The position numbers and the translations under genes were made by a program. Of a stretch of DNA of 64,000 bases, positions 3,129 to 33,049 are shown one piece after another (positions within the stretch are counted from its first letter, which is position 1; the number at the start of each line of letters is the position of its first letter). The DNA is taken from the NCBI RefSeq assembly GCF_047606085.1, contig NZ_JASGEX010000092.1:1631-65630 (forward strand). The letters are read 5' to 3'. The notes below the pieces were generated by a model, which saw only the letters and a program-made list of their open reading frames with translations, was not told where the DNA came from and made no database searches. This stretch comes from Parafilimonas sp. (GTDB lineage Bacteria > Bacteroidota > Bacteroidia > Chitinophagales > Chitinophagaceae).

Positions 3129-4007
3129 TTATCTTCTGCCGTATTTGCGAATGAGACGATAAACAAGATATATCGCCAGCAGTATCACCAGTATGCCTAT
3201 CCATCCTGAAATGATGGAGGTTTTAACCGTCATCCGGAATGCGGCATCGGAATGGCCGTTGGTGTTCCTCGCTGTAAAAGAAGTAACATAATCGCCGGTA
3301 ATGGTTTTATCAGGCACTTTTAAAGTGGCTGTTACGTCGGCGGTTTTGCCCGCGTCGAGCTGCTGTATTTTTGCAGGCTCAAAAGTAGCTTCCCATTTGG
3401 ATGGCGTTTGCGCCGAAAGCTCTACATTACTTAAAGGAAGCGAACCCGTATTCTTTACCACCAGTTGTATCTGCTTCTGGCTGCCTTCTGTTATATCGCC
3501 GCTCAAAAGCCCGGTGGGTGTGCTTAGCTGAATGCCGTAACTGCCTTTTACCACAGCCTGCAGGTTTAGCCGCAGGGTATCTTTTGCAGAAATGGCCATT
3601 ACAGGTATATTGTATTTAGCCGGGCTGGTATTTTCTGCTGCATTTATTTCAATGCTTATATTTTGTGTTTTGCCGGCATCCACGCTTATGGAAGATACCT
3701 GGCTGCCCGAGGCGCGGAACACTATATTCCAGCCTGCAGGCGCCTGTGTGTGCAGGTCGTAAATAAGCTGTTGCGAAGATCCATTGTGCAGGCTGGCATT
3801 GTACCGGAAGGTTTCATTAACCGCCGCTTCCACGTTAATGAGGTTTGATGTGAAAGCAGATGGGGCGTTTGCCCCTGCGGCCGCCGCCGTTTGGGCTGCA
3901 GCAGGCAAAGCACGGAATAAACAAACTGATAAAATAAAAACTGCCTGCAGGCGGAAAAGGCGGCCCATGCGCCGCATGATAATTGTAGATTTTGCTGACA
4001 TAGCCAA
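3129..4007 (-). CDS. NEW3 (NPCBM-associated) domain membrane-anchored protein
   Basis: Signal peptide, two Ig-like repeats (VKNTGS..L..V.L...P.W), C-terminal TM followed by RKYGRR; first gene of ABC operon. Confidence 0.7.
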   Translation of the reverse strand: MAMSAKSTIIMRRMGRLFRLQAVFILSVCLFRALPAAAQTAAAAGANAPSAFTSNLINVEAAVNETFRYNASLHNGSSQQLIYDLHTQAPAGWNIVFRASGSQVSSISVDAGKTQNISIEINAAENTSPAKYNIPVMAISAKDTLRLNLQAVVKGSYGIQLSTPTGLLSGDITEGSQKQIQLVVKNTGSLPLSNVELSAQTPSKWEATFEPAKIQQLDAGKTADVTATLKVPDKTITGDYVTSFTARNTNGHSDAAFRMTVKTSIISGWIGILVILLAIYLVYRLIRKYGRR

Positions 4008-4186
4008 GAAATAAAAATTATTATAGTTAGAATAATAGTTTCGTTATTAAAATACTCCCGGTTAATAAAGGAACATTTGCGGCAGCAGTGGTTAAAAAAT
4101 CGAGCTGCCAAGGTAATAGAAGAAAAAATATAGAAACAACAGATATTTTAGTTTTAAGAAAATTTTTAAATAAAGGCGAAGAAAAA

Positions 4187-4217
4187 AAGGTTTAAAGTTG
4201 AAGGTTTAAGGTGTAGG
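4187..4217. repeat. Degenerate heptamer tandem array (AAGGTTT AAAGTTG AAGGTTT AAGGTGT)
   Basis: 7-bp periodicity read directly in the intergenic region. Confidence 0.6.
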
Positions 4218-4291
4218 GCAGGATGTATTTCATCATTGCTGAACTCTTTTTATTTTGCGATATCTTATTTTAAATAATAATAACCGGTATA

Positions 4292-6913
4292 ATGAAAAAA
4301 ATATGCAGCTTTCTATATACAAAAATCTTTTACTGTTGCTTTATTACCCTCCTTTTTGCAGACTGCAAGCCAAAGCATGCGGCAACTGCAGATGCTTCTT
4401 TAAGCGATGCCGGCGTATCGCTTTCGCTCGCCACAAAAAGAAAAGCTTTAATCAGCAACATTCATTATACAGTAGCCGTGCATATTCCTGCCGATGCTGA
4501 AGAAATAATTAATGGAGAAGAAATCATTGCTTTTAACCTTGCCAGTGCTGACGACAGCTTATTGATTGATTTCAAGAATGATTCCAGCCATATTAAGCTG
4601 ATAAAAGTGAATAAAAAAGAAGCGCCTGTCATCATGAGGAATGAGCACATTTTTATACCGCCCAATCTTTTAAAAAAAGGAAGCAACCATGTTCAGGTAA
4701 AATTTATTGCAGGCAATGAGGCGCTCACCCGCAAGCCGGAATTTATGTACACGCTGTTTGTTCCCGAACGGGCAAGAACCTTTATGCCTTGTTTCGACCA
4801 GCCCGACCTGAAAGCTGTTTTTACCGTAAAGGCTGCGGTGCCATCCGAATGGATAGCCGTTTCCAATGGCGCCGTTAAAAACACAAATATCAGCGGCAAT
4901 GAAAAAACCTATTCCTTTAAAACTTCCGATACCATCAGCACGTATCTTTTCTCTATCGTTGCAGGCAAATTTCAGGCAGTTGCAAAAAAATTTGATAACA
5001 GGCGCATTACCCTGTATTACCGCGAAACAGATACAGCAAAACTCAGGTACAGCCTCGATACCATTTTACAGTTGCAGTATGCAGCACTGCAGTTTATGGA
5101 AAAATATACCGGCATCCTCTATCCCTTTCAAAAGCTGGATATCATCGCCCTTCCCGATTTCCAGTTTGGCGGCATGGAGCATGTGGGCGCTATTGATTAT
5201 GTAGCGTCTTCCCTCTTTCTCGACAAATCAGCCACACAAAGCCAAAGGCTTGGCCGGCTAAAGCTGTTGTCGCACGAAATAGCGCATGCATGGTTTGGCG
5301 ATATGGTTACGATGAAATGGTTTAATGATGTATGGATGAAAGAAGTGTTCGCCAATTTTATGGCCGATAAAGTGGCCGATGAACTGATGCCCGATGACAA
5401 AAGTGATTTTCGTTTTATGCTGGATCATTATCCTTCTGCATACTCGGTTGACAGAACGGAGGGCACGCATCCCATAAGGCAGCCATTGGATAACCTGAAC
5501 CAGGCGGGCTTATTATATGGCCCCATTATTTACGATAAAGCGCCCATCGTTTTAAAACAACTGGAAAAACTGGCAGGTAAAGACCTGTTTCAAAAAGGCG
5601 CACAGGAATATTTAAAAACCTACGCTTATAAAAATGCGGAATGGCCCGATCTTATTGCCATTATAAATAGATTAAGCAACAAAGACATAACGGAATGGAA
5701 TGATACCTGGATAAACAAAGCGGGCAGGCCGGTGATAAGTTATACGATGGGTGCAGCTAATGATGTTATCAGCAAATTCAATATTGCACAAACGGGTGAA
5801 CATAACCAGCGCGGTTTATGGAACCAGCAATTTGCAACAGCATTTGTAGCGGAGAATAACATAAAAACAGTGCCTGTAGCCCTCAACGATGCATCCGTTA
5901 CATTAAAAGAAGCGGCAGGCATACAACGCCCGGCTTTCATATTGTTCAATGCTTCGGGCGAAGGCTACGGATTATTCCCTGCCGATGAAAACATGCCTGC
6001 CAATATGCGCCTGCTGAAAGACCCGCTGATGCGTTTGTCAGGCTATATCAACCTGTATGAAAATGTTTTAAACGGCACCGTATTAACACCGCAGGAATTT
6101 TTGGAGGCAGGCATGAAAAACCTGGCAACAGAAAAAGAGGAGCTTAGTGTAAACCTGCTGAGCGGGCAATTCAGCAGCATCTACTGGCAGTTCCTGCTGC
6201 CTGCTGAAAGGGATATGATTGCTGCAAAAACGGAAACAGCTATATGGCAATGTATGCAGCAGGCAGATAACGCGGCCAAAAAGCGCATATTATTTTTGTT
6301 GTATAAAAATATTGCTGTAACAAAGCCTGCTGCCGATGTTATTTTCCATATATGGAAAACACAACAGGCGCCCCAGGGCGTGTTGCTTACGCCGGACGAC
6401 TATACCTCCATGGCCGCCGATCTCGCCATACGGCAATATCCCAATGCTGATACTATTTTATACAGGCAGCTTTCAAGAATAACGGATGCCGACCGCAGGG
6501 CAAGGTTTAGCTATTTGCTGGCGCCGCTTTCAAATAATGTAAGCACAAGAGATTCTTTTTTTTATTCTTTATCGGTTAAAAGCAACCGTATGAATGAAGC
6601 CTGGGTATTAACGGCCTTATCGTACCTGCATCACCCGTTAAGGGCTGCTTATTCGGAGAAATACCTGCCGCAAACACTGGAATGGCTGAGCGATGTGCAG
6701 CAAACAGGCAGCGTATTCTTTGCCATGCGCTGGCTGAATGCGTCGTTCGGCTCATATCAAACCCAAAGCGCTGCTGATGTGGTACACGCTTTCCTGAATG
6801 AGCATCCTGATTATAATCCAATCCTGAAAAGAAAAATTTACCAGGCAACCGATATGTTATTCAGGGCGGAAAAGATCACGCAGCATATTGAACAGGCCGG
6901 CAAAGTAAGATAA
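4292..6913 (+). CDS. pepN: M1 family aminopeptidase (lipoprotein-like N-terminus)
   Basis: GGMEH exopeptidase motif, HEIAH-x18-E zinc motif, YDKAP catalytic Tyr. Confidence 0.9.
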   Translation: MKKICSFLYTKIFYCCFITLLFADCKPKHAATADASLSDAGVSLSLATKRKALISNIHYTVAVHIPADAEEIINGEEIIAFNLASADDSLLIDFKNDSSHIKLIKVNKKEAPVIMRNEHIFIPPNLLKKGSNHVQVKFIAGNEALTRKPEFMYTLFVPERARTFMPCFDQPDLKAVFTVKAAVPSEWIAVSNGAVKNTNISGNEKTYSFKTSDTISTYLFSIVAGKFQAVAKKFDNRRITLYYRETDTAKLRYSLDTILQLQYAALQFMEKYTGILYPFQKLDIIALPDFQFGGMEHVGAIDYVASSLFLDKSATQSQRLGRLKLLSHEIAHAWFGDMVTMKWFNDVWMKEVFANFMADKVADELMPDDKSDFRFMLDHYPSAYSVDRTEGTHPIRQPLDNLNQAGLLYGPIIYDKAPIVLKQLEKLAGKDLFQKGAQEYLKTYAYKNAEWPDLIAIINRLSNKDITEWNDTWINKAGRPVISYTMGAANDVISKFNIAQTGEHNQRGLWNQQFATAFVAENNIKTVPVALNDASVTLKEAAGIQRPAFILFNASGEGYGLFPADENMPANMRLLKDPLMRLSGYINLYENVLNGTVLTPQEFLEAGMKNLATEKEELSVNLLSGQFSSIYWQFLLPAERDMIAAKTETAIWQCMQQADNAAKKRILFLLYKNIAVTKPAADVIFHIWKTQQAPQGVLLTPDDYTSMAADLAIRQYPNADTILYRQLSRITDADRRARFSYLLAPLSNNVSTRDSFFYSLSVKSNRMNEAWVLTALSYLHHPLRAAYSEKYLPQTLEWLSDVQQTGSVFFAMRWLNASFGSYQTQSAADVVHAFLNEHPDYNPILKRKIYQATDMLFRAEKITQHIEQAGKVR

Positions 6914-17697: not shown

Positions 17698-18726
17698 TTA
17701 CTTTAAGGCATTCCAGCCCTGCGCCGTAATATCAAAAACATTTCCACCTTTGCTTATTAGTTTGCAGCCTTCGCTTTGATCAGCCATATAACCAACTATG
17801 CTGATATTATCGTTCAAAACAAGTTTATCATAATCATCCTGCTTCGCCGTAAAAATCAGTTCATAATCTTCACCGCCGTTAAGCGCACAAACGGTGGGAT
17901 CGAGCCCAAACTTAAAAGCAGCCAGGCGGGTTTCCTCGGCAATGGGCAACTTATCTTCATACAGCCTGCAGCCCAGGTTGCTTTGGTTACTTATATGTAA
18001 TATTTCGCTGCTTAAGCCATCGCTTATATCCATCATGGCAGTTGGCACCATGTTTTGTTCAGCGAAATATGCTGTTATATCCTTCCTTGCCTCAGGCTTT
18101 AAAAAACGGCCGACAATATAATTTTCCCCTTCCAGGTCGGGCTGCACCTGCGGGTTTTCGAGGTAAATGCCTTTTTCCCTTTCCAGTAATGTAAGGCCTA
18201 AGAATGCAGCGCCCAAATCGCCGCTTACACAAATCAAATCGCCTTTATTCGCGGTGCTTCTTTTTACAAATTTATCAGGCGCCATTTCCCCTATTGCCGT
18301 AACGGAAATAATAAATCCTTTTTGGGAGGAAGATGTATCGCCGCCAACCAGATCAACATTATATTTTTCGCAGGCCGCATAAATGCCTTCATAAAATTCA
18401 TTCAGGGCTTCGAGGCTGAAGCGGTTGCTTATGCCAATGCTTACGGTAATTTGCGTGGGCGTTGCATTCATGGCATACACATCGCTCAGGTTTACGATCA
18501 CGCTTTTATAACCCAGGTGTTTTAAAGGCGTGTACATTAAATCGAAATGCACGCCTTCAATTAACAGGTCGGTTGTAACAACGGTTTGCCTTCCGTAATG
18601 ATCAATTACGGCTGCATCATCGCCCACCCCAACAATAGTGGATGCATTATTTATTTCAAAGTTTTTTGTGAGGTGATTGATCAGGCCAAATTCTCCCAAC
18701 GTTGATATTTCTGTGCGGTTACTCAT
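17698..18726 (-). CDS. thiL: Thiamine-monophosphate kinase
   Basis: GEFGLI, GDDAAV, NLSDVYAMNA, GGDT, MDISDGL, GGEDYEL. Confidence 0.95.
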   Translation of the reverse strand: MSNRTEISTLGEFGLINHLTKNFEINNASTIVGVGDDAAVIDHYGRQTVVTTDLLIEGVHFDLMYTPLKHLGYKSVIVNLSDVYAMNATPTQITVSIGISNRFSLEALNEFYEGIYAACEKYNVDLVGGDTSSSQKGFIISVTAIGEMAPDKFVKRSTANKGDLICVSGDLGAAFLGLTLLEREKGIYLENPQVQPDLEGENYIVGRFLKPEARKDITAYFAEQNMVPTAMMDISDGLSSEILHISNQSNLGCRLYEDKLPIAEETRLAAFKFGLDPTVCALNGGEDYELIFTAKQDDYDKLVLNDNISIVGYMADQSEGCKLISKGGNVFDITAQGWNALK

Positions 18727-18730
18727 TGCT

Positions 18731-18756
18731 ATTTACGATTTACGATTTACGATTTT
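18731..18756. repeat. Heptamer tandem array (ATTTACG)x3 plus partial copy
   Basis: Three perfect copies, 4 bp upstream of the thiL ATG. Confidence 0.85.
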
Positions 18757-18785
18757 AGCCTCTGCTATTTTAATGGGTTAATTAT

Positions 18786-19145
18786 TTATTCTGATTTCCG
18801 GCTGCGCAAAGTTTTCAGGCTTGCAACAATAATGGCCAGCAGTTCATCACCTTCTTTATGCAAAAGATTTATTGATTCGCCAAACGAAGGATTTAATTCA
18901 ACTATCATTTCAAGAAAAAAAGTTGACTCATCCAATTCTTCTTCAACAATCTTAAATTTATTTATAAAATCTGCGTGTGATTTTGCCCGGCATGCAGCCC
19001 TGTAATTTGCTGCTGATGAAGATGCGGAACGATTACCCTGATCAGCATAATTTTTATTAACAATATTATACGGAAGGCGTAAAACAAGCTTTGCATAGTC
19101 CAAAGCATATTGCTTTAATCTGTGCATTAAAATTTCTTTCGTCAT
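18786..19145 (-). CDS. Four-helix-bundle protein (23S rRNA-IVP / TIGR02436 / Avd-like)
   Basis: DQGNRSASSSAANYRAACRAKSHADFINKFKIVEEELDESTFFLE signature. Confidence 0.9.
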   Translation of the reverse strand: MTKEILMHRLKQYALDYAKLVLRLPYNIVNKNYADQGNRSASSSAANYRAACRAKSHADFINKFKIVEEELDESTFFLEMIVELNPSFGESINLLHKEGDELLAIIVASLKTLRSRKSE

Positions 19146-19155
19146 TTTGCTAAAG

Positions 19156-19257
19156 ATTTAGAATTTACAATTTATGATTAAAATTTGTTTTGAATTATAC
19201 ACATATAAAGCAATCAAACATAAATAAATCGTAAATCCAAAATCGTACATCGTAAAT
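19156..19257. repeat. Two opposed heptamer arrays: ATTTAGA/ATTTACA/ATTTATG (19156-19183) and CGTAAAT/CCAAAAT/CGTACAT/CGTAAAT (19230-19257)
   Basis: The second array is the reverse complement of ATTTACG and begins at the suhB stop codon. Confidence 0.8.
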
Positions 19258-20036
19258 CATTCCACCTCTCCGCCCTGTACCACTTTTAATAATGCATCAT
19301 GAATAATGCCATTGGTAGCAATTATGCCTGGCTGGTAAGGGTTATAAGGATTGCCTTTCATATCTGTTACTTTTCCTCCGGCTTCTTCAATTATTAAAAA
19401 ACCAGCGGCGCTGTCCCAGGCATTCAGCTTATGTTCAAAGAAACCATCAAAGCGGCCGGCAGCAACATAGCAGAGATCAATGGCGGCGCTGCCCAGCCTT
19501 CTCACCGGCACGCCTTTTCGTATGAATTTGCCAAATACTTCCAGCGGGCCATTCGGCATATCAAGATACGTGTAAGGAAAACCCGTAACGAGGCAACTGC
19601 TTACCAGTTCTTTCCTTTTGCTTACCTGTATGGGCTGCCCATTCAGTGTGGCGCCTTTGCCGCGCTCTGCAAAAAAGAGCTCATCTATAAAAGGGTTATA
19701 AACAGCGCCCAGTTCCATGCTGCCATCTTTTTCTATGCCAATGCTTACACAGCATACCGGTATGCGGTTGGCATAGTTTACGGTGCCGTCAATAGGGTCA
19801 ATTATCCATTTATAATTTGAATCCTGTATGATCTCTCCCGATTCCTCACTTAAAATATAGTGGTCAGGATAATTTTTTCTGATGATCTCAAAAATAACTT
19901 CCTCGCATTTATGGTCCACTTCTGTTACCAGGTTGTTGATCCCCTCTTTATTGCTGATAGAAAAATTACGGGTGGAATAGTCTTTCATAATTGCGGCTGC
20001 TGTTTTAACCGCATCGAATAATACCTGTTTAAGCAT
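19257..20036 (-). CDS. suhB: Inositol monophosphatase family protein
   Basis: LVTEVD, ILSEE, WIIDPIDGT, GSAAIDL, WDSAAG. Confidence 0.9.
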   Translation of the reverse strand: MLKQVLFDAVKTAAAIMKDYSTRNFSISNKEGINNLVTEVDHKCEEVIFEIIRKNYPDHYILSEESGEIIQDSNYKWIIDPIDGTVNYANRIPVCCVSIGIEKDGSMELGAVYNPFIDELFFAERGKGATLNGQPIQVSKRKELVSSCLVTGFPYTYLDMPNGPLEVFGKFIRKGVPVRRLGSAAIDLCYVAAGRFDGFFEHKLNAWDSAAGFLIIEEAGGKVTDMKGNPYNPYQPGIIATNGIIHDALLKVVQGGEVE

Positions 20037-20163
20037 GTGCAAATATACCTGACTTTATTTTCCAGAAACCCGTTTATCCTTATTGATTAGTTAAGAGGGA
20101 AATGAAATTGGTATGCTGATGTAAAATTTCCGTAGTTTCGTAGTTTGAATAAAGACCACATGG

Positions 20164-30367: not shown

Positions 30368-31791
30368 CTTTCGTGAACAATGGTTTTAGCGGAATCAATT
30401 TTTAATAAAGCGCTGTCTGAAATAACGCCGGATACATATATATCACCGGGCAGGCTTACAGCATACAAAACAGGCGCAATACAGTTTTTAAACCGTACAT
30501 CTTTTAAATGCACAGACGTATTGCGGGCAATGAATGCTGTATTAAAGCTTTGAAATGTTATACTGTCGAGCAGCACATATTTGCATTGCGGGAAGAAAAT
30601 AAAAGCTGCTTCGTTATAACCTGAATCGGCAACGAATGTGGCATTATTGCCGTGAATAATCAGCGTATCTGCCTTTATAAGCAATGAATCGTTTATAACG
30701 ATTTTAGGGTTATTGCCAAAAAGGGTTCTTAATGAAATAATATTTGATTTCGAGTTCCTTATGCTGTCTGATAATTGTACAACCTGGCTGTTTCTTGCAA
30801 CCGCAGGTTCATCTGCAATAACGGTTTGTGTATTATCTTTTATAAAATAATCCTTGTAAATAAACCAGGCAAGCGCAGCGAGCAGCAGCAGGAAAAGCAC
30901 TATCAAAAAACGAGCGCCTGCGCCGCTGCTTTTCTTAACCGCCACTTCCTTCTGAATGTATTCCACGCGCTGTGGTTCTGTAATTACTTCCTCCGCACCT
31001 GCCTTCTTTACAACGGGCCTGGTTGCTTCATACTGTGAAGGCGATTTATCATTCTTAATTAAAACAACGGTTATATTATCTTTTCCGCCGGCAAGATTGG
31101 CGGCATCAATTAAAGCGGCAGATTTTTCTTTCAGGCTGTGCGATGAACTTAAAATGCCGGCGATGGTGCGGCTGTTAATCATATCATACAGGCCATCGCT
31201 GCAGAGCAATAAAGTATCACCCGGCAAAAAAGGTGATTCGCCTGTTTCAATATAATCTGATTCCAAAAATTTTTCTTCATCAAAGCCCAATGCTTTATTG
31301 ATTTCATTTCGTTTGGGATGGCTCATCGCGGCTTCTTCCGTTAAGCGGCCGCTTTCCTCCAAAAAGCCGACAAAGGAATGATCATGCGTAACCTTTACCA
31401 GCGAGTTATCACGAAAGAGATATAATCTTGTATCGCCCACATGCGCGTAATAAAATTTGTTTTCATTTATATCAGCCAGTGCAAGCGTTACCACGCAAGC
31501 CATTTGGGCATGTTCCGCGCTTGTTTGTTTTTTTTCAACAATCTTTTTACTTGCCCCGGCCATTGCGGTTTTCAGTATATCAATTATATCGCCCGAAGCG
31601 TTTTTTAATGTATTAAGAATAGCTGTACGGGCAAGCGCTGCCGCCACTTCACCGCCTTCATATCCGCCCACACCGTCAATAACACAGCCAACAATATATT
31701 TATCATGTACGATCGTCTGGGCAATAAAGTTATCTTCATTATTGTCGCGCATTTTGCCTGTATCCGTATTGCCGTAAAAGTTATCAGCCAT
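30364..31791 (-). CDS. PP2C/PstP-like Ser/Thr phosphatase with TM and periplasmic beta-helix-like domain
   Basis: RDNNED, DGVGG, VGDTR, CSDGL, GGKDNIT; one TM. Confidence 0.92.
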   Translation of the reverse strand: MADNFYGNTDTGKMRDNNEDNFIAQTIVHDKYIVGCVIDGVGGYEGGEVAAALARTAILNTLKNASGDIIDILKTAMAGASKKIVEKKQTSAEHAQMACVVTLALADINENKFYYAHVGDTRLYLFRDNSLVKVTHDHSFVGFLEESGRLTEEAAMSHPKRNEINKALGFDEEKFLESDYIETGESPFLPGDTLLLCSDGLYDMINSRTIAGILSSSHSLKEKSAALIDAANLAGGKDNITVVLIKNDKSPSQYEATRPVVKKAGAEEVITEPQRVEYIQKEVAVKKSSGAGARFLIVLFLLLLAALAWFIYKDYFIKDNTQTVIADEPAVARNSQVVQLSDSIRNSKSNIISLRTLFGNNPKIVINDSLLIKADTLIIHGNNATFVADSGYNEAAFIFFPQCKYVLLDSITFQSFNTAFIARNTSVHLKDVRFKNCIAPVLYAVSLPGDIYVSGVISDSALLKIDSAKTIVHER

Positions 31792-31885
31792 CGTTCCTGT
31801 GCGTTTTTTTTACATCGCGAAAATTCGCAGCCAGCAGCAACAGGCAAACAATAAACAGCGATGATGAAAGAATGATATTTAGCAT
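31784..31885 (-). CDS. Small 33-aa single-pass membrane protein (not in ORF track)
   Basis: MLNIILSSSLFIVCLLLLAANFRDVKKTHRNDG; its stop overlaps the PP2C start (ATGGCTGA). Confidence 0.55.
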   Translation of the reverse strand: MLNIILSSSLFIVCLLLLAANFRDVKKTHRNDG

Positions 31886-31910
31886 GGTTGATGTTTTTTG
31901 AACATTTTTT

Positions 31911-32095
31911 TCGTCAAACGTGAATCGTCAAACGTGAATGTAACAATGTTCATTTTTTTATATTCCCAATTGATATTTATACTTCGAATTATCAAATTAC
32001 TTTAAACAGACTGCCTTCAACACCTAAAATATTTTGACTGCTGCATTCCAAAAAACCTTTCAGGGTTTTCACGTTTGACGATTGACGTTTCACGT
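31911..32095. repeat. Inverted heptamer arrays (TCGTCAA/ACGTGAA)x2 ... TTCACGT/TTGACGA/TTGACGT/TTCACGT around a 129-bp spacer
   Basis: 32068-32081 is the exact reverse complement of the 14-mer repeated at 31911 and 31925. Confidence 0.8.
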
Positions 32096-33049
32096 TCATG
32101 ATTTAAAAATATTCACGCCCACAATACCATTCAGCACAATACGTGAATTAAGCGGCAACGGAACCCATACCGGGTTATCCATATCGCTCGCCACTACTTC
32201 ATTTTCATTCACCAGCGTTTTTTCCCCAAAAGAAGCGAGATAAAATTTATGGTCATCCTTATTAAATTTCACGCGCAAATGCGGCGTATTCACCCATTCT
32301 GACGGTATGCGGAAAATATCTTCCTTATCAGCAGCTTCATCCTTACCTGAAATAAGCACATCCGGTTCGCGCATGTAATATTCAATTTTTTTCCCTGCAA
32401 ATTCTTTATCAGGCACAATCGTCTCAAACCTTGCAAGGAGCTTAGGCGCACCGTTTTTTACAACTGTATCCTGCATGCGGAAATGCGGGTTGTAAGCAAT
32501 TTCATAATAGCCGTCGCTGTAAAAGATAAAGCCATCCAGTAATTCGGGGTTTACATCAAAGGTTTCCGCAATACCCGTTTGCCTTGGAATGAAAGTAACG
32601 CGCACACTTTCTTTTTTCTGCTGCAGGCTGCCTGGCATTAGTTTGCCGATTACACTTTTATCGCCGGGCAAATATTCAGGATGCGCTGCAAAACGAAACA
32701 CCCATTTATTGGAAGCCGGCGCTACTATTTTTCCTTCATTGTGGCAGCGTTCGAGAATATTGTAAAACTGTTTTATACATTCCTGTACAATCAGCCCGAA
32801 AATGCCTTTTTTATTTTGCGCGAACTGGTTGTAATCATCTTCATTAAAACACACGATGTATTCATGAAAGAAAACAACGCGGTTAGCGAATGAGAGCTCT
32901 TTTATGGAATCTTCAAATCGCTGAACAATATATTTATATACATCAGCAGCAGTAAGCGGCTGCGTTTGTTTTACATTATAGGTTGCTTCACGTTTAAGGA
33001 ACCATTCGTGAAAGCCCATGCGCTGCCAGAAAGAAGTTTTAGTTTTCAT
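32096..33049 (-). CDS. FhaA-like protein: DUF3662-like N-domain plus degenerate FHA-like C-domain
   Basis: FFHEYIVCFNEDDY resembles the FhaA N-domain; the C-terminal beta-rich region lacks canonical GR/SxxH; operon context. Confidence 0.55.
   Translation of the reverse strand: MKTKTSFWQRMGFHEWFLKREATYNVKQTQPLTAADVYKYIVQRFEDSIKELSFANRVVFFHEYIVCFNEDDYNQFAQNKKGIFGLIVQECIKQFYNILERCHNEGKIVAPASNKWVFRFAAHPEYLPGDKSVIGKLMPGSLQQKKESVRVTFIPRQTGIAETFDVNPELLDGFIFYSDGYYEIAYNPHFRMQDTVVKNGAPKLLARFETIVPDKEFAGKKIEYYMREPDVLISGKDEAADKEDIFRIPSEWVNTPHLRVKFNKDDHKFYLASFGEKTLVNENEVVASDMDNPVWVPLPLNSRIVLNGIVGVNIFKS

Follow-up and report, generated by a model that had tools for sequence, protein, structure and literature searches.

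The analysis of a 64,000-nucleotide (nt) stretch of the genome of a Parafilimonas species (contig NZ_JASGEX010000092.1, positions 1,631 to 65,630, hereafter the window) outlined a compact element lodged between the genes suhB and thiL, in which a gene encoding a 119-amino-acid (aa) four-helix-bundle protein of the IVP family, known from the intervening sequences (IVSs) of 23S rRNA, is bracketed by mutually complementary arrays of tandem heptamers. This locus is one copy of a cassette widespread in the Bacteroidota, for which the searched literature holds no description apart from the IVS of Coxiella. We consider it reasonably likely that the element is an IVS-like, promoterless and evolutionarily mobile intercistronic cassette that would be looped out of the operon mRNA by RNA pairing. 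This reading builds on the observed anatomy of the cassette, the enrichment of heptamer arrays around IVP genes, their co-oriented placement inside operons, the occurrence of empty sites, the patchy distribution of the cassette, the purifying selection acting on the protein and, in one relative, the co-transcription of the cassette with its host operon.

The suhB-IVP-thiL locus of the window

The three genes are encoded on the minus strand, in the order suhB-like (20042-19257), IVP open reading frame (ORF; 19145-18786) and thiL (18726-17698). In window coordinates, the locus comprises the following features:

19257..20042, minus strand: suhB-like inositol monophosphatase gene, the upstream operon gene (Pfam Inositol_P, E=9.5e-72; ORF list)
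19225..19259, minus strand: 5' (forward) heptamer array, about five units of the nnGAwkT type (Tandem Repeats Finder, TRF; sequence; unit logo)
19177..19224, minus strand: AT-rich loop separating the 5' array from the local complementary array (sequence, fold)
19155..19176, minus strand: local degenerate complementary array, CATAAATTGTAAATTCTAAATC (sequence, TRF, fold)
18786..19145, minus strand: gene for the IVP / four-helix-bundle protein, 119 aa (TIGR02436, PF05635, AlphaFold model, Foldseek, dN/dS)
18731..18758, minus strand: 3' (reverse) heptamer array, AAAATCGTAAATCGTAAATCGTAAAT (TRF, 100% matches)
17698..18726, minus strand: thiL, thiamine-phosphate kinase gene, the downstream operon gene (Pfam AIRS and AIRS_C; homologues named thiamine-phosphate kinase)

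The TGA stop codon of suhB (19259-19257) is itself part of the first heptamer unit (aTGATTT), which is followed by ACGATGT, ACGATTT, TGGATTT and ACGATTT; in the ATTTACG-type phase, the same array (19259-19225) reads (T)GATTTAC, GATGTAC, GATTTTG, GATTTAC, GATTTAT. The local complementary array (CATAAAT, TGTAAAT, TCTAAAT, C) is located 9 nt upstream of the IVP start codon (ATG, 19145), and the 3' array (AAAATCG, TAAATCG, TAAATCG, TAAAT, with a perfect (CGTAAAT)x3 within it) ends 4 nt (AGCA) before the ATG of thiL (18726). TRF delimited three period-7 arrays at this locus (18731-18755, with 100% matches, 19156-19174 and 19225-19258), and sequence and TRF agree in every detail with the array coordinates and sequences given in a preliminary description of this DNA. 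The segments 18726-18755 and 19226-19255 constitute the longest inverted repeat in the whole window. Allowing for at most two mismatches, the two-unit pattern CGTAAATCGTAAAT was matched seven times, versus 0.92 matches expected, with none of 100 shuffles reaching seven. A stringent scan of the window located period-7 arrays at two loci and yielded two arrays of period 12, with no arrays detected for periods 4-6 and 8-11.

The genes found within approximately 4-5 kb of the window IVP encode an M28 peptidase, ThiL, SuhB, a GH3 protein and YitT. A scan for sigma-70 promoters and intrinsic terminators at the locus identified nothing exceeding shuffles, and a TAnnTTTG box of the Bacteroidetes type (TATGTTTG), located in the 5' loop, is not kept in Parafilimonas terrae. 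Searches of the region against Rfam and of the locus against PADLOC defence models did not return any matches. A 57-codon ORF (MASSSSPSLCKRF...) lies antisense to the IVP gene on the plus strand (18832-19005) and recurs in P. terrae, probably as a side effect of the constraint to which the sense strand is subject.

The window ORF matched TIGR02436 ("four helix bundle protein") with 57.9 bits, for a cutoff of 24, and PF05635 with 31.8 bits, just under the gathering cutoff (GA) of 33.8, and precomputed PF05635 matches were available for all of its close homologues. A profile of the window IVP relatives identified BT_0352 of Bacteroides thetaiotaomicron (PDB 2RLD, five chains) with E=1.7e-15. The AlphaFold monomer model (predicted local distance difference test score, pLDDT, 95.3) encompasses four helices (residues 3-23, 28-52, 57-84 and 86-118), and Foldseek aligned it to BT_0352 (2RLD; template modelling score, TM, 0.80-0.85), to Xcc0516 (2GSC; TM 0.79-0.84) and to Avd, the accessory protein of diversity-generating retroelements (DGRs; 4DWL; TM 0.74-0.80), with the DGR ribonucleoprotein 8UBE also among the best structural matches after 2RLD and 2GSC. 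The IVP/Avd-like four-helix-bundle identity proposed in the preliminary description is hence borne out by family model, predicted fold and structural matches alike. The PF05635/TIGR02436 family, which is represented by two crystal structures and for which we know of no function or genomic logic outside 23S rRNA IVSs and DGRs, comprises 3,626 clusters at 50% identity (E<=1e-3). Pentamers have been reported for Xcc0516 and Avd (PMC4990558; 10.1101/2023.10.23.563531), and in the Avd pentamer all five protomers touch an RNA stem-loop (10.1101/2023.10.23.563531). Of nine close pairs of IVP genes, six gave a ratio of nonsynonymous to synonymous substitution rates (dN/dS) of 0.05-0.15, and dS was saturated in the remaining three; the window gene and its P. 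terrae counterpart gave 0.10. Purifying selection acts on the intact IVP genes included in this comparison.

Avd shares the fold of the window protein and the pentameric barrel of homologues and binds structured RNA beside its own gene, and PF05635 is the commonest DGR-associated family (PMC10053308). The cassette could hence be conceived as a DGR remnant or satellite, in which the IVP would be an Avd whose reverse transcriptase (RT) partner is encoded at another site and the arrays would be left over from a structure associated with the template and variable repeats (TR/VR). Gene context largely refutes this explanation, which we regard as effectively excluded: no RT (RVT domain), TR/VR pair or target gene turned up in the surrounding 4-5 kb, either in the window or in the other loci for which genes were called, the sequence identity of the window IVP to Avd is only 8-10%, and the stem-loop to which Avd binds in the Bordetella phage DGR RNA (10.1101/2023.10.23.563531) does not resemble the heptamer arrays.

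Heptamer arrays around IVP genes and their placement in operons

Two sets of loci, designated by L numbers, were compiled for the comparative analysis: 80 from a scan for empty sites with a thiL profile, using one genome per species, and 80 further loci from a metagenome scan with an IVP alignment. The association of IVP genes with arrays was evaluated on 77 full-length IVP genes with their flanks and 88 control ORFs of the same loci. The lag-7 repeat score of IVP genes surpassed that of control ORFs both upstream (9.6 vs 4.1, p=6e-19) and downstream (8.9 vs 4.2, p=3e-14), as did the inverted-repeat score between upstream and downstream flanks (13.5 vs 7.7, p=1e-12), and a period-7 array or inverted-flank signal was present in 86% of the IVP genes and 14% of the control ORFs. 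The enrichment of inverted heptamers around family members, which the preliminary description had put forward as the comparison to make, is hence substantial. Only lag 7 and its multiple 14 were raised near IVP genes. Of the lag-7 arrays in the 955 kb covered, 125 were no more than 250 nt away from an IVP gene and 57 were located elsewhere, with each of the other periods from 4 to 12 accounting for at most 13 arrays in total. Simple repeats can occur in AT-rich spacers, and arrays of this kind might in principle arise by chance or in slippage-prone intergenic DNA unrelated to the gene. That explanation is refuted by the shuffle tests, by the enrichment of period 7 alone and by the recurrence of the arrays around homologous genes in unrelated operons and in a second IVP subfamily, and we accord it practically no probability.

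The units conform to the consensus nnGAwkT, with G at position 3 in 85%, A at position 4 in 95% and T at position 7 in 86% of cases, and the 3' arrays present the complement of this motif. Forward (F) and reverse (R) arrays are always arranged as F-[IVP]-R and never as R-[IVP]-F, and the match between arms is higher within one element than between elements (13.2 vs 9.6, p=1.5e-8). The additional local complement seen in the window (FR-[IVP]-R) is a minority, lineage-specific feature, found in approximately 5 of 52 loci; the local complement of the window is kept in L001, L002 and L085. Very long, near-pure arrays were also noted (L156, ~300-370, ACGATTT x9; L133, ~640-725, GAAGTnn x12; L058, 1571-1623, TATCTGG x7; L057, 2202-2260, ATCCTGT x8), and their sequence suggests expansion by slippage. 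Furthermore, a GC-rich contig that is probably not of Bacteroidota origin (L163, 540-2240) presents the same design with CGGATTn units, organized as tandem cassettes in the order array plus complement, IVP gene, array-complement hairpin, 194-aa ORF, hairpin and IVP pseudogene.

Approximately 30 of the 80 metagenomic IVP genes are located at suhB-thiL junctions, and the rest elsewhere. Both neighbours are co-directional and close in 27 of 29 non-suhB cassettes, and the junctions occupied are those of classical operon partners (M20 peptidase, argE-like, and argH; mreB-mreC; hisB-hisH; mraY-murD; cdsA-dxr; sdhA-sdhB). Measured from where the upstream stop codon ends, the 5' array starts at -3 to +5 nt in 30 of 42 loci (median 1.5), with the stop codon usually in phase with the heptamer units (TAGATTT or nTGATTT). 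In 22 of 31 loci, the distance from the end of the 3' array to the downstream ATG is -2 to +7 nt (median 3). Since the arrays end at the stop and start codons of the host genes, the cassette takes up the entire intercistronic spacer. In one locus (L052, 2729-2971), an extra 80-aa ORF is interposed between suhB and the 5' array, which starts at the stop codon of that ORF.

The subfamily of BT_0352, whose members are about 25% identical to the window protein, occupies either the araD-araA junction of the Bacteroides araMPRDAB operon, described previously (PMC4666351), or the junction between an aminotransferase gene and a DAHP synthase/chorismate mutase gene. Its members are flanked by (AATTGAC)n and (ATTGTCA)n, corresponding to TTGACAA units with the same GA core, and two Bacteroides contigs differ by 21 nt, the length of three units. 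Rfam searches with the Bacteroides cassette returned sub-threshold noise only. TransTermHP hairpins are listed next to BT_0352 and BT_0353 in the Theta-Base supplement (Ryan et al. 2020), in which the arrays have been predicted as terminators; both entries read FALSE in the last column of that table.

Predicted RNA pairing, transcription and history of the cassette

The 5' and 3' arrays of the window are predicted to form a duplex of 24 bp with one mismatch (-28.5 kcal/mol), which is present in both the minimum free energy (MFE) and the centroid folds, and the duplex of the 5' array with the local complement reaches -18.7 kcal/mol. In the fold ensemble, the 5' array is divided between two partners, its first three units pairing with the 3' array (18.9 expected pairs) and its last two to three pairing locally. 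Folding hence agrees with the preliminary description in predicting a long-range stem that encloses the gene, and dispenses with the switch between local and long-range pairing that had been proposed with it, since both helices coexist on different units and the local complement is rare. The stem is a thermodynamic prediction that recurs among related loci, with at least ten array-array pairs in the MFE fold of the whole intercistronic RNA (~500 nt) in 22 of 27 of them, and the region from -25 to -5 of thiL is predicted to be sequestered within it (unpaired probability 0.23).

Contigs from four wastewater metatranscriptomes matching one of the loci (L126) start at the 5' end of suhB and run through the arrays, the IVP gene and thiL, indicating that the cassette is co-transcribed with the operon. 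No RNA runs containing the window were identified in a run search; for the sdhA-IVP-sdhB locus (L159), 5-10% of words were found in RNA runs.

The adjacency of suhB and thiL is kept across the Chitinophagaceae, and in 33 of about 50 species the junction spans only -4 to 54 nt and is empty, so that the empty sites sought on the suggestion of the preliminary description are found in most of this family. An IVP gene is present at suhB-thiL in at least ten loci, in two of which it is broken by a stop codon (L042) or a frameshift (L051), and in others the junction contains heptamer hairpins with no gene (L058, L048 and L011). All suhB-thiL IVP genes are flanked by inverted heptamer arrays, with units that differ by lineage (ATTTACG, ATTGCAG, ATTTTAG, ATGTACG and GAAGTAC). 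In two loci (L016, 2999-3497; L057, 3060-3497) the junction holds an unrelated ORF coding for about 85-135 aa, whose N-terminus is lipoprotein-like in L016, indicating that the suhB-thiL spacer accepts other insertions too. A different gene-less stem element was observed at this junction in L006 (3313-3500) and L007 (3307-3500), where an insert of 187-193 nt without any ORF is closed by a non-heptamer inverted repeat (TTTCACACAAAGAAGCAAAGG ... CCTTTGGAGCGTTGTGTGAAA).

The presence of the IVP gene is scattered on the thiL tree, and loci with and without it can be closely related, as illustrated by L012 (with IVP) and L014 (without), with 96% thiL identity, and by L059 (with) and L053 (without), with 89%. 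The same suhB-IVP-thiL arrangement as in the window is present in P. terrae (L001, with the IVP gene at 4001-4357), a near relative within the Chitinophagaceae. The 3' arrays of the two differ by an indel of exactly one 7-nt unit, and unit number between relatives differs by multiples of 7 nt, in line with the register slippage anticipated from the window sequence. Synonymous divergence (dS) between them is lower for the IVP gene (0.32) than for thiL (0.78) and suhB (1.52), reflecting either extra constraint on the IVP RNA or a cassette ancestry more recent than that of its flanks.

The clades of the IVP tree match junction type only in part, with suhB-thiL IVPs distributed over at least three clades and IVPs from other junctions nested among them. 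The window IVP is 71-72% identical to IVPs located between argE-like/GNAT genes and argH, and 52% identical to that of L005, which belongs to the same genus and occupies the same junction, and the IVPs of L117 (suhB-thiL) and L118 (GH3-LysE) are 80% identical. As read from these sequences, the history of the IVP indicates long vertical runs, interrupted when a cassette was gained, lost or replaced or, on occasion, changed its junction.

Gene-less arrangements of the same repeat type occur at several sites, including the window itself:

31911..32096, no strand assigned: gene-less inverted heptamer array pair (TRF; second-longest inverted repeat of the window)

Its arrays, (TCGTCAA ACGTGAA)x2 and TTTCACG, TTTGACG, ATTGACG, TTTCACG, are 93% complementary, with 129 nt separating the arms, and the pair begins in the TGA of a minus-strand gene with no Pfam match (32096-33049). 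Its polarity is inside-out with respect to IVP cassettes, the complement-type array coming first, its fold has a z-score of -2.8, and no IVP gene or remnant was found in its spacer. The pair precedes a 33-codon ORF and a gene for a PP2C phosphatase. This hydrophobic ORF (31788-31886, minus strand; MLNIILSSSLFIVCLLLLAANFRDVKKTHRNDG) has a stop codon that overlaps the PP2C ATG (ATGGCTGA), and from its sequence it could encode a small membrane peptide translationally coupled to the phosphatase. Additional gene-less array-complement hairpins with short loops and unit types of IVP cassettes are located immediately ahead of suhB, immediately past thiL and upstream of cdsA (L026, 2590-2694 and 4521-4634; L138, 1110-1188; L145, 1401-1468).

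Nature of the cassette

Under the reading that we favour, a promoterless IVP gene, bracketed by a forward nnGAwkT array and a downstream reverse-complementary array, fills the intercistronic gap of its host operon and would be included in the operon mRNA on transcription. In vivo, the arrays would pair in this mRNA to generate a stem of approximately 20-30 bp, looping out the IVP ORF and making the stop and start codons of the host genes adjoin each other. This stem may be a substrate for RNase III, may couple downstream translation to upstream termination, or both; for coupling, ribosomes terminating on the upstream gene would open the stem that sequesters the -25 to -5 region of thiL. Either role, cleavage or coupling, would make the insertion nearly harmless to the operon. 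The IVP would be translated from the host transcript and kept by selection, and, if pentameric Avd is a guide, it may bind to the units of the arrays; such binding is made plausible by the conserved GA core, the presence of three to five or more units per array and the pentameric state of its homologues. Over time, the cassette would be gained, lost and replaced, decay to pseudogenes and leave gene-less hairpins behind. A more far-reaching version, which we put forward tentatively as a possibility, envisages a new class of selfish, transposase-free, protein-coding "intervening sequence" of bacterial mRNAs and rRNAs. In it, the pentameric IVP would bind the GA-core arrays, the insertion would be neutralised through pairing and excision by RNase III, which would bring stop and start codons back together or restore the rRNA helix, and the arrays and the IVP would jointly drive spread via RNA or repeat slippage.

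[quoted passage not shown] RNA pairing would then be incidental, and the co-oriented placement in operons would correspond to the insertions that survive. Several observations weigh against the RNA-level reading, and some of them favour this rival. The arms are only about 86% complementary, and 49 arm alignments presented no asymmetry between G.U and A.C mismatches (31 vs 26), so that, given the lack of a G.U excess, complementarity could equally be maintained at the DNA level. The GA core is conserved in every unit, beyond mere complementarity; it is not needed for a mere stem and suggests recognition by a protein, possibly of DNA. Compared to shuffles, the 581-nt region of the window folds with an unremarkable total energy (z=-1.1), which places the signal in the specific stem rather than in overall stability, and the L126 metatranscriptome contigs, which were available in assembled form only, show unprocessed read-through RNA. 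The distance between IVPs correlates weakly with that between heptamer profiles (r=0.16, p=0.01), and the correlation vanishes once the divergence of a pair exceeds 40%; heptamer type follows the IVP among close relatives only, and these values are not evidence that protein and repeat specificity co-evolved. The IVP clades that do track junction type imply much vertical history, and neither a recognisable target-site duplication at filled versus empty junctions nor a transposition intermediate was seen.

The fixed F...R polarity, the gene-less inverted array pairs at other junctions, the patchy presence of the cassette with its replacements and pseudogenes, and the low dS of the IVP gene relative to its flanks, which is compatible with recent transfer, are likewise in keeping with a DNA element. 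Against it stand the absence of any transposase or integrase in more than 100 loci, the lack of a recognisable target-site duplication at the junctions compared and the divergence of the copies, which are 45-93% identical at the protein level among the loci compared. In addition, the termini lie within a few bases of stop and start codons and 27 of 29 non-suhB cassettes are co-oriented with their neighbours, a precision that would be unusual for survivorship alone, and the IVP family also sits in rRNA stems excised by RNase III. On balance, we deem a DNA-level element unlikely, yet a contender to be taken seriously.

The second rival is a host regulatory module, in which the IVP would act as a TRAP-like RNA-binding toroid on GAU-core repeats and control the stability or translation of neighbouring cistrons to the benefit of the host. 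Purifying selection on the IVP, long vertical persistence at suhB-thiL and other junctions and the predicted sequestration of the thiL -25 to -5 region all agree with such a role, as do arrays of three to five or more units alongside pentameric homologues (2RLD, with five chains, 2GSC and 4DWL) and the binding of RNA by the Avd pentamer through repeated protomer contacts (10.1101/2023.10.23.563531). A regulator serving the host is nonetheless difficult to reconcile with the presence of the cassette in functionally unrelated operons, with its absence from suhB-thiL in most species and its variable presence between close relatives, with the existence of pseudogenes and gene-less remnants, and with the lack of deep co-variation between protein and repeats, and we rate it as distinctly improbable.

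The closest parallels to an RNA-paired cassette are the 23S rRNA IVSs of Leptospira, Coxiella, Xanthomonas and other bacteria, in which the IVP family is likewise encoded in a loop, complementary ends form a long stem and this stem restores the continuity of the host RNA at its base, resulting in the same topology. In the Coxiella IVS, two to three copies of the GA-containing heptamer GACAGAT lie in tandem between the stem and the ORF, upstream of the latter and thus in the position that heptamers take relative to the IVP ORF of the cassette; RNase III cuts at the first repeat, and copy number varies by strain (PMC4990558). The cassette differs in lying between protein-coding genes, such as suhB and thiL, in operon mRNA and not in helix 25 or 45 of 23S rRNA, in ending at stop and start codons and in having stem arms that are themselves heptamer arrays. 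Moreover, the IVP of the cassette is clearly under purifying selection, whereas the ORF of the Coxiella IVS is decaying, and the 23S IVS is excised by RNase III, while for the cassette the likeness is known here from sequence and predicted stem.

A transcribed heptamer array also forms one arm of a long RNA hairpin in the 5' untranslated region (UTR) of Haemophilus influenzae hmw, where the (ATCTTTC)n hairpin is cut by RNase III, and both hairpin and RNase III are required for changes in repeat number (PMC12721329). This provides a mechanistic precedent for 7-nt register changes, although hmw pairs a single array with a non-repeat G-rich arm, encloses no gene or IVP and is not intercistronic. 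The REP/REPIN-RAYT systems of Proteobacteria similarly combine a gene flanked by inverted short repeats with gene-less intergenic or intercistronic copies and mRNA hairpins, and gene-less copies of the repeat type flanking IVP genes (L026, L138, L145, L058 and window 31911-32096) constitute a REPIN-like trait. RAYTs, however, are HUH/Y1 (IS200/IS605-like) transposases, whereas the 119-aa IVP forms a four-helix bundle in which no catalytic motif is known, and repetitive extragenic palindromes (REPs) are single palindromes rather than tandem heptamers, so the relationship is one of analogy only. Foldback and MITE elements share with the cassette terminal inverted repeats of short tandem units, gene-less derivatives and a patchy distribution, and differ from it in that no transposase, duplication or high-copy family of near-identical members was seen for the cassette in the loci compared, which is placed precisely between stop and start codons.

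With respect to the preliminary description as a whole, the protein family, the flanking arrays, the empty sites and the changes by 7-nt units stand, and the pairing switch is not needed. None of the outcomes it had named as evidence against itself was obtained: arrays are enriched around family members, structure is predicted at the arrays, and presence at the suhB-thiL junction is patchy instead of strictly vertical. In a related context, the figure legend of a large clustering study lists "23S rRNA IVP" among CRISPR-array-associated proteins (PMC10910872), an association to which the flanking repeat arrays might contribute.

The layout of the cassette offers a plausible way for an insertion to stay silent in a host operon. 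It would bring the intervening sequences of rRNA together with a form in mRNA that is far more common, and it points to a sequence-specific pair of repeat and protein. Since BT_0352 (PDB 2RLD) is such a cassette in the well-studied ara operon, the function of IVS ORFs and the spread of IVSs would become addressable in a genetic model. If the selfish-element version were true, it would account for how 23S rRNA IVSs arose and for what thousands of orphan "four helix bundle protein" genes do.

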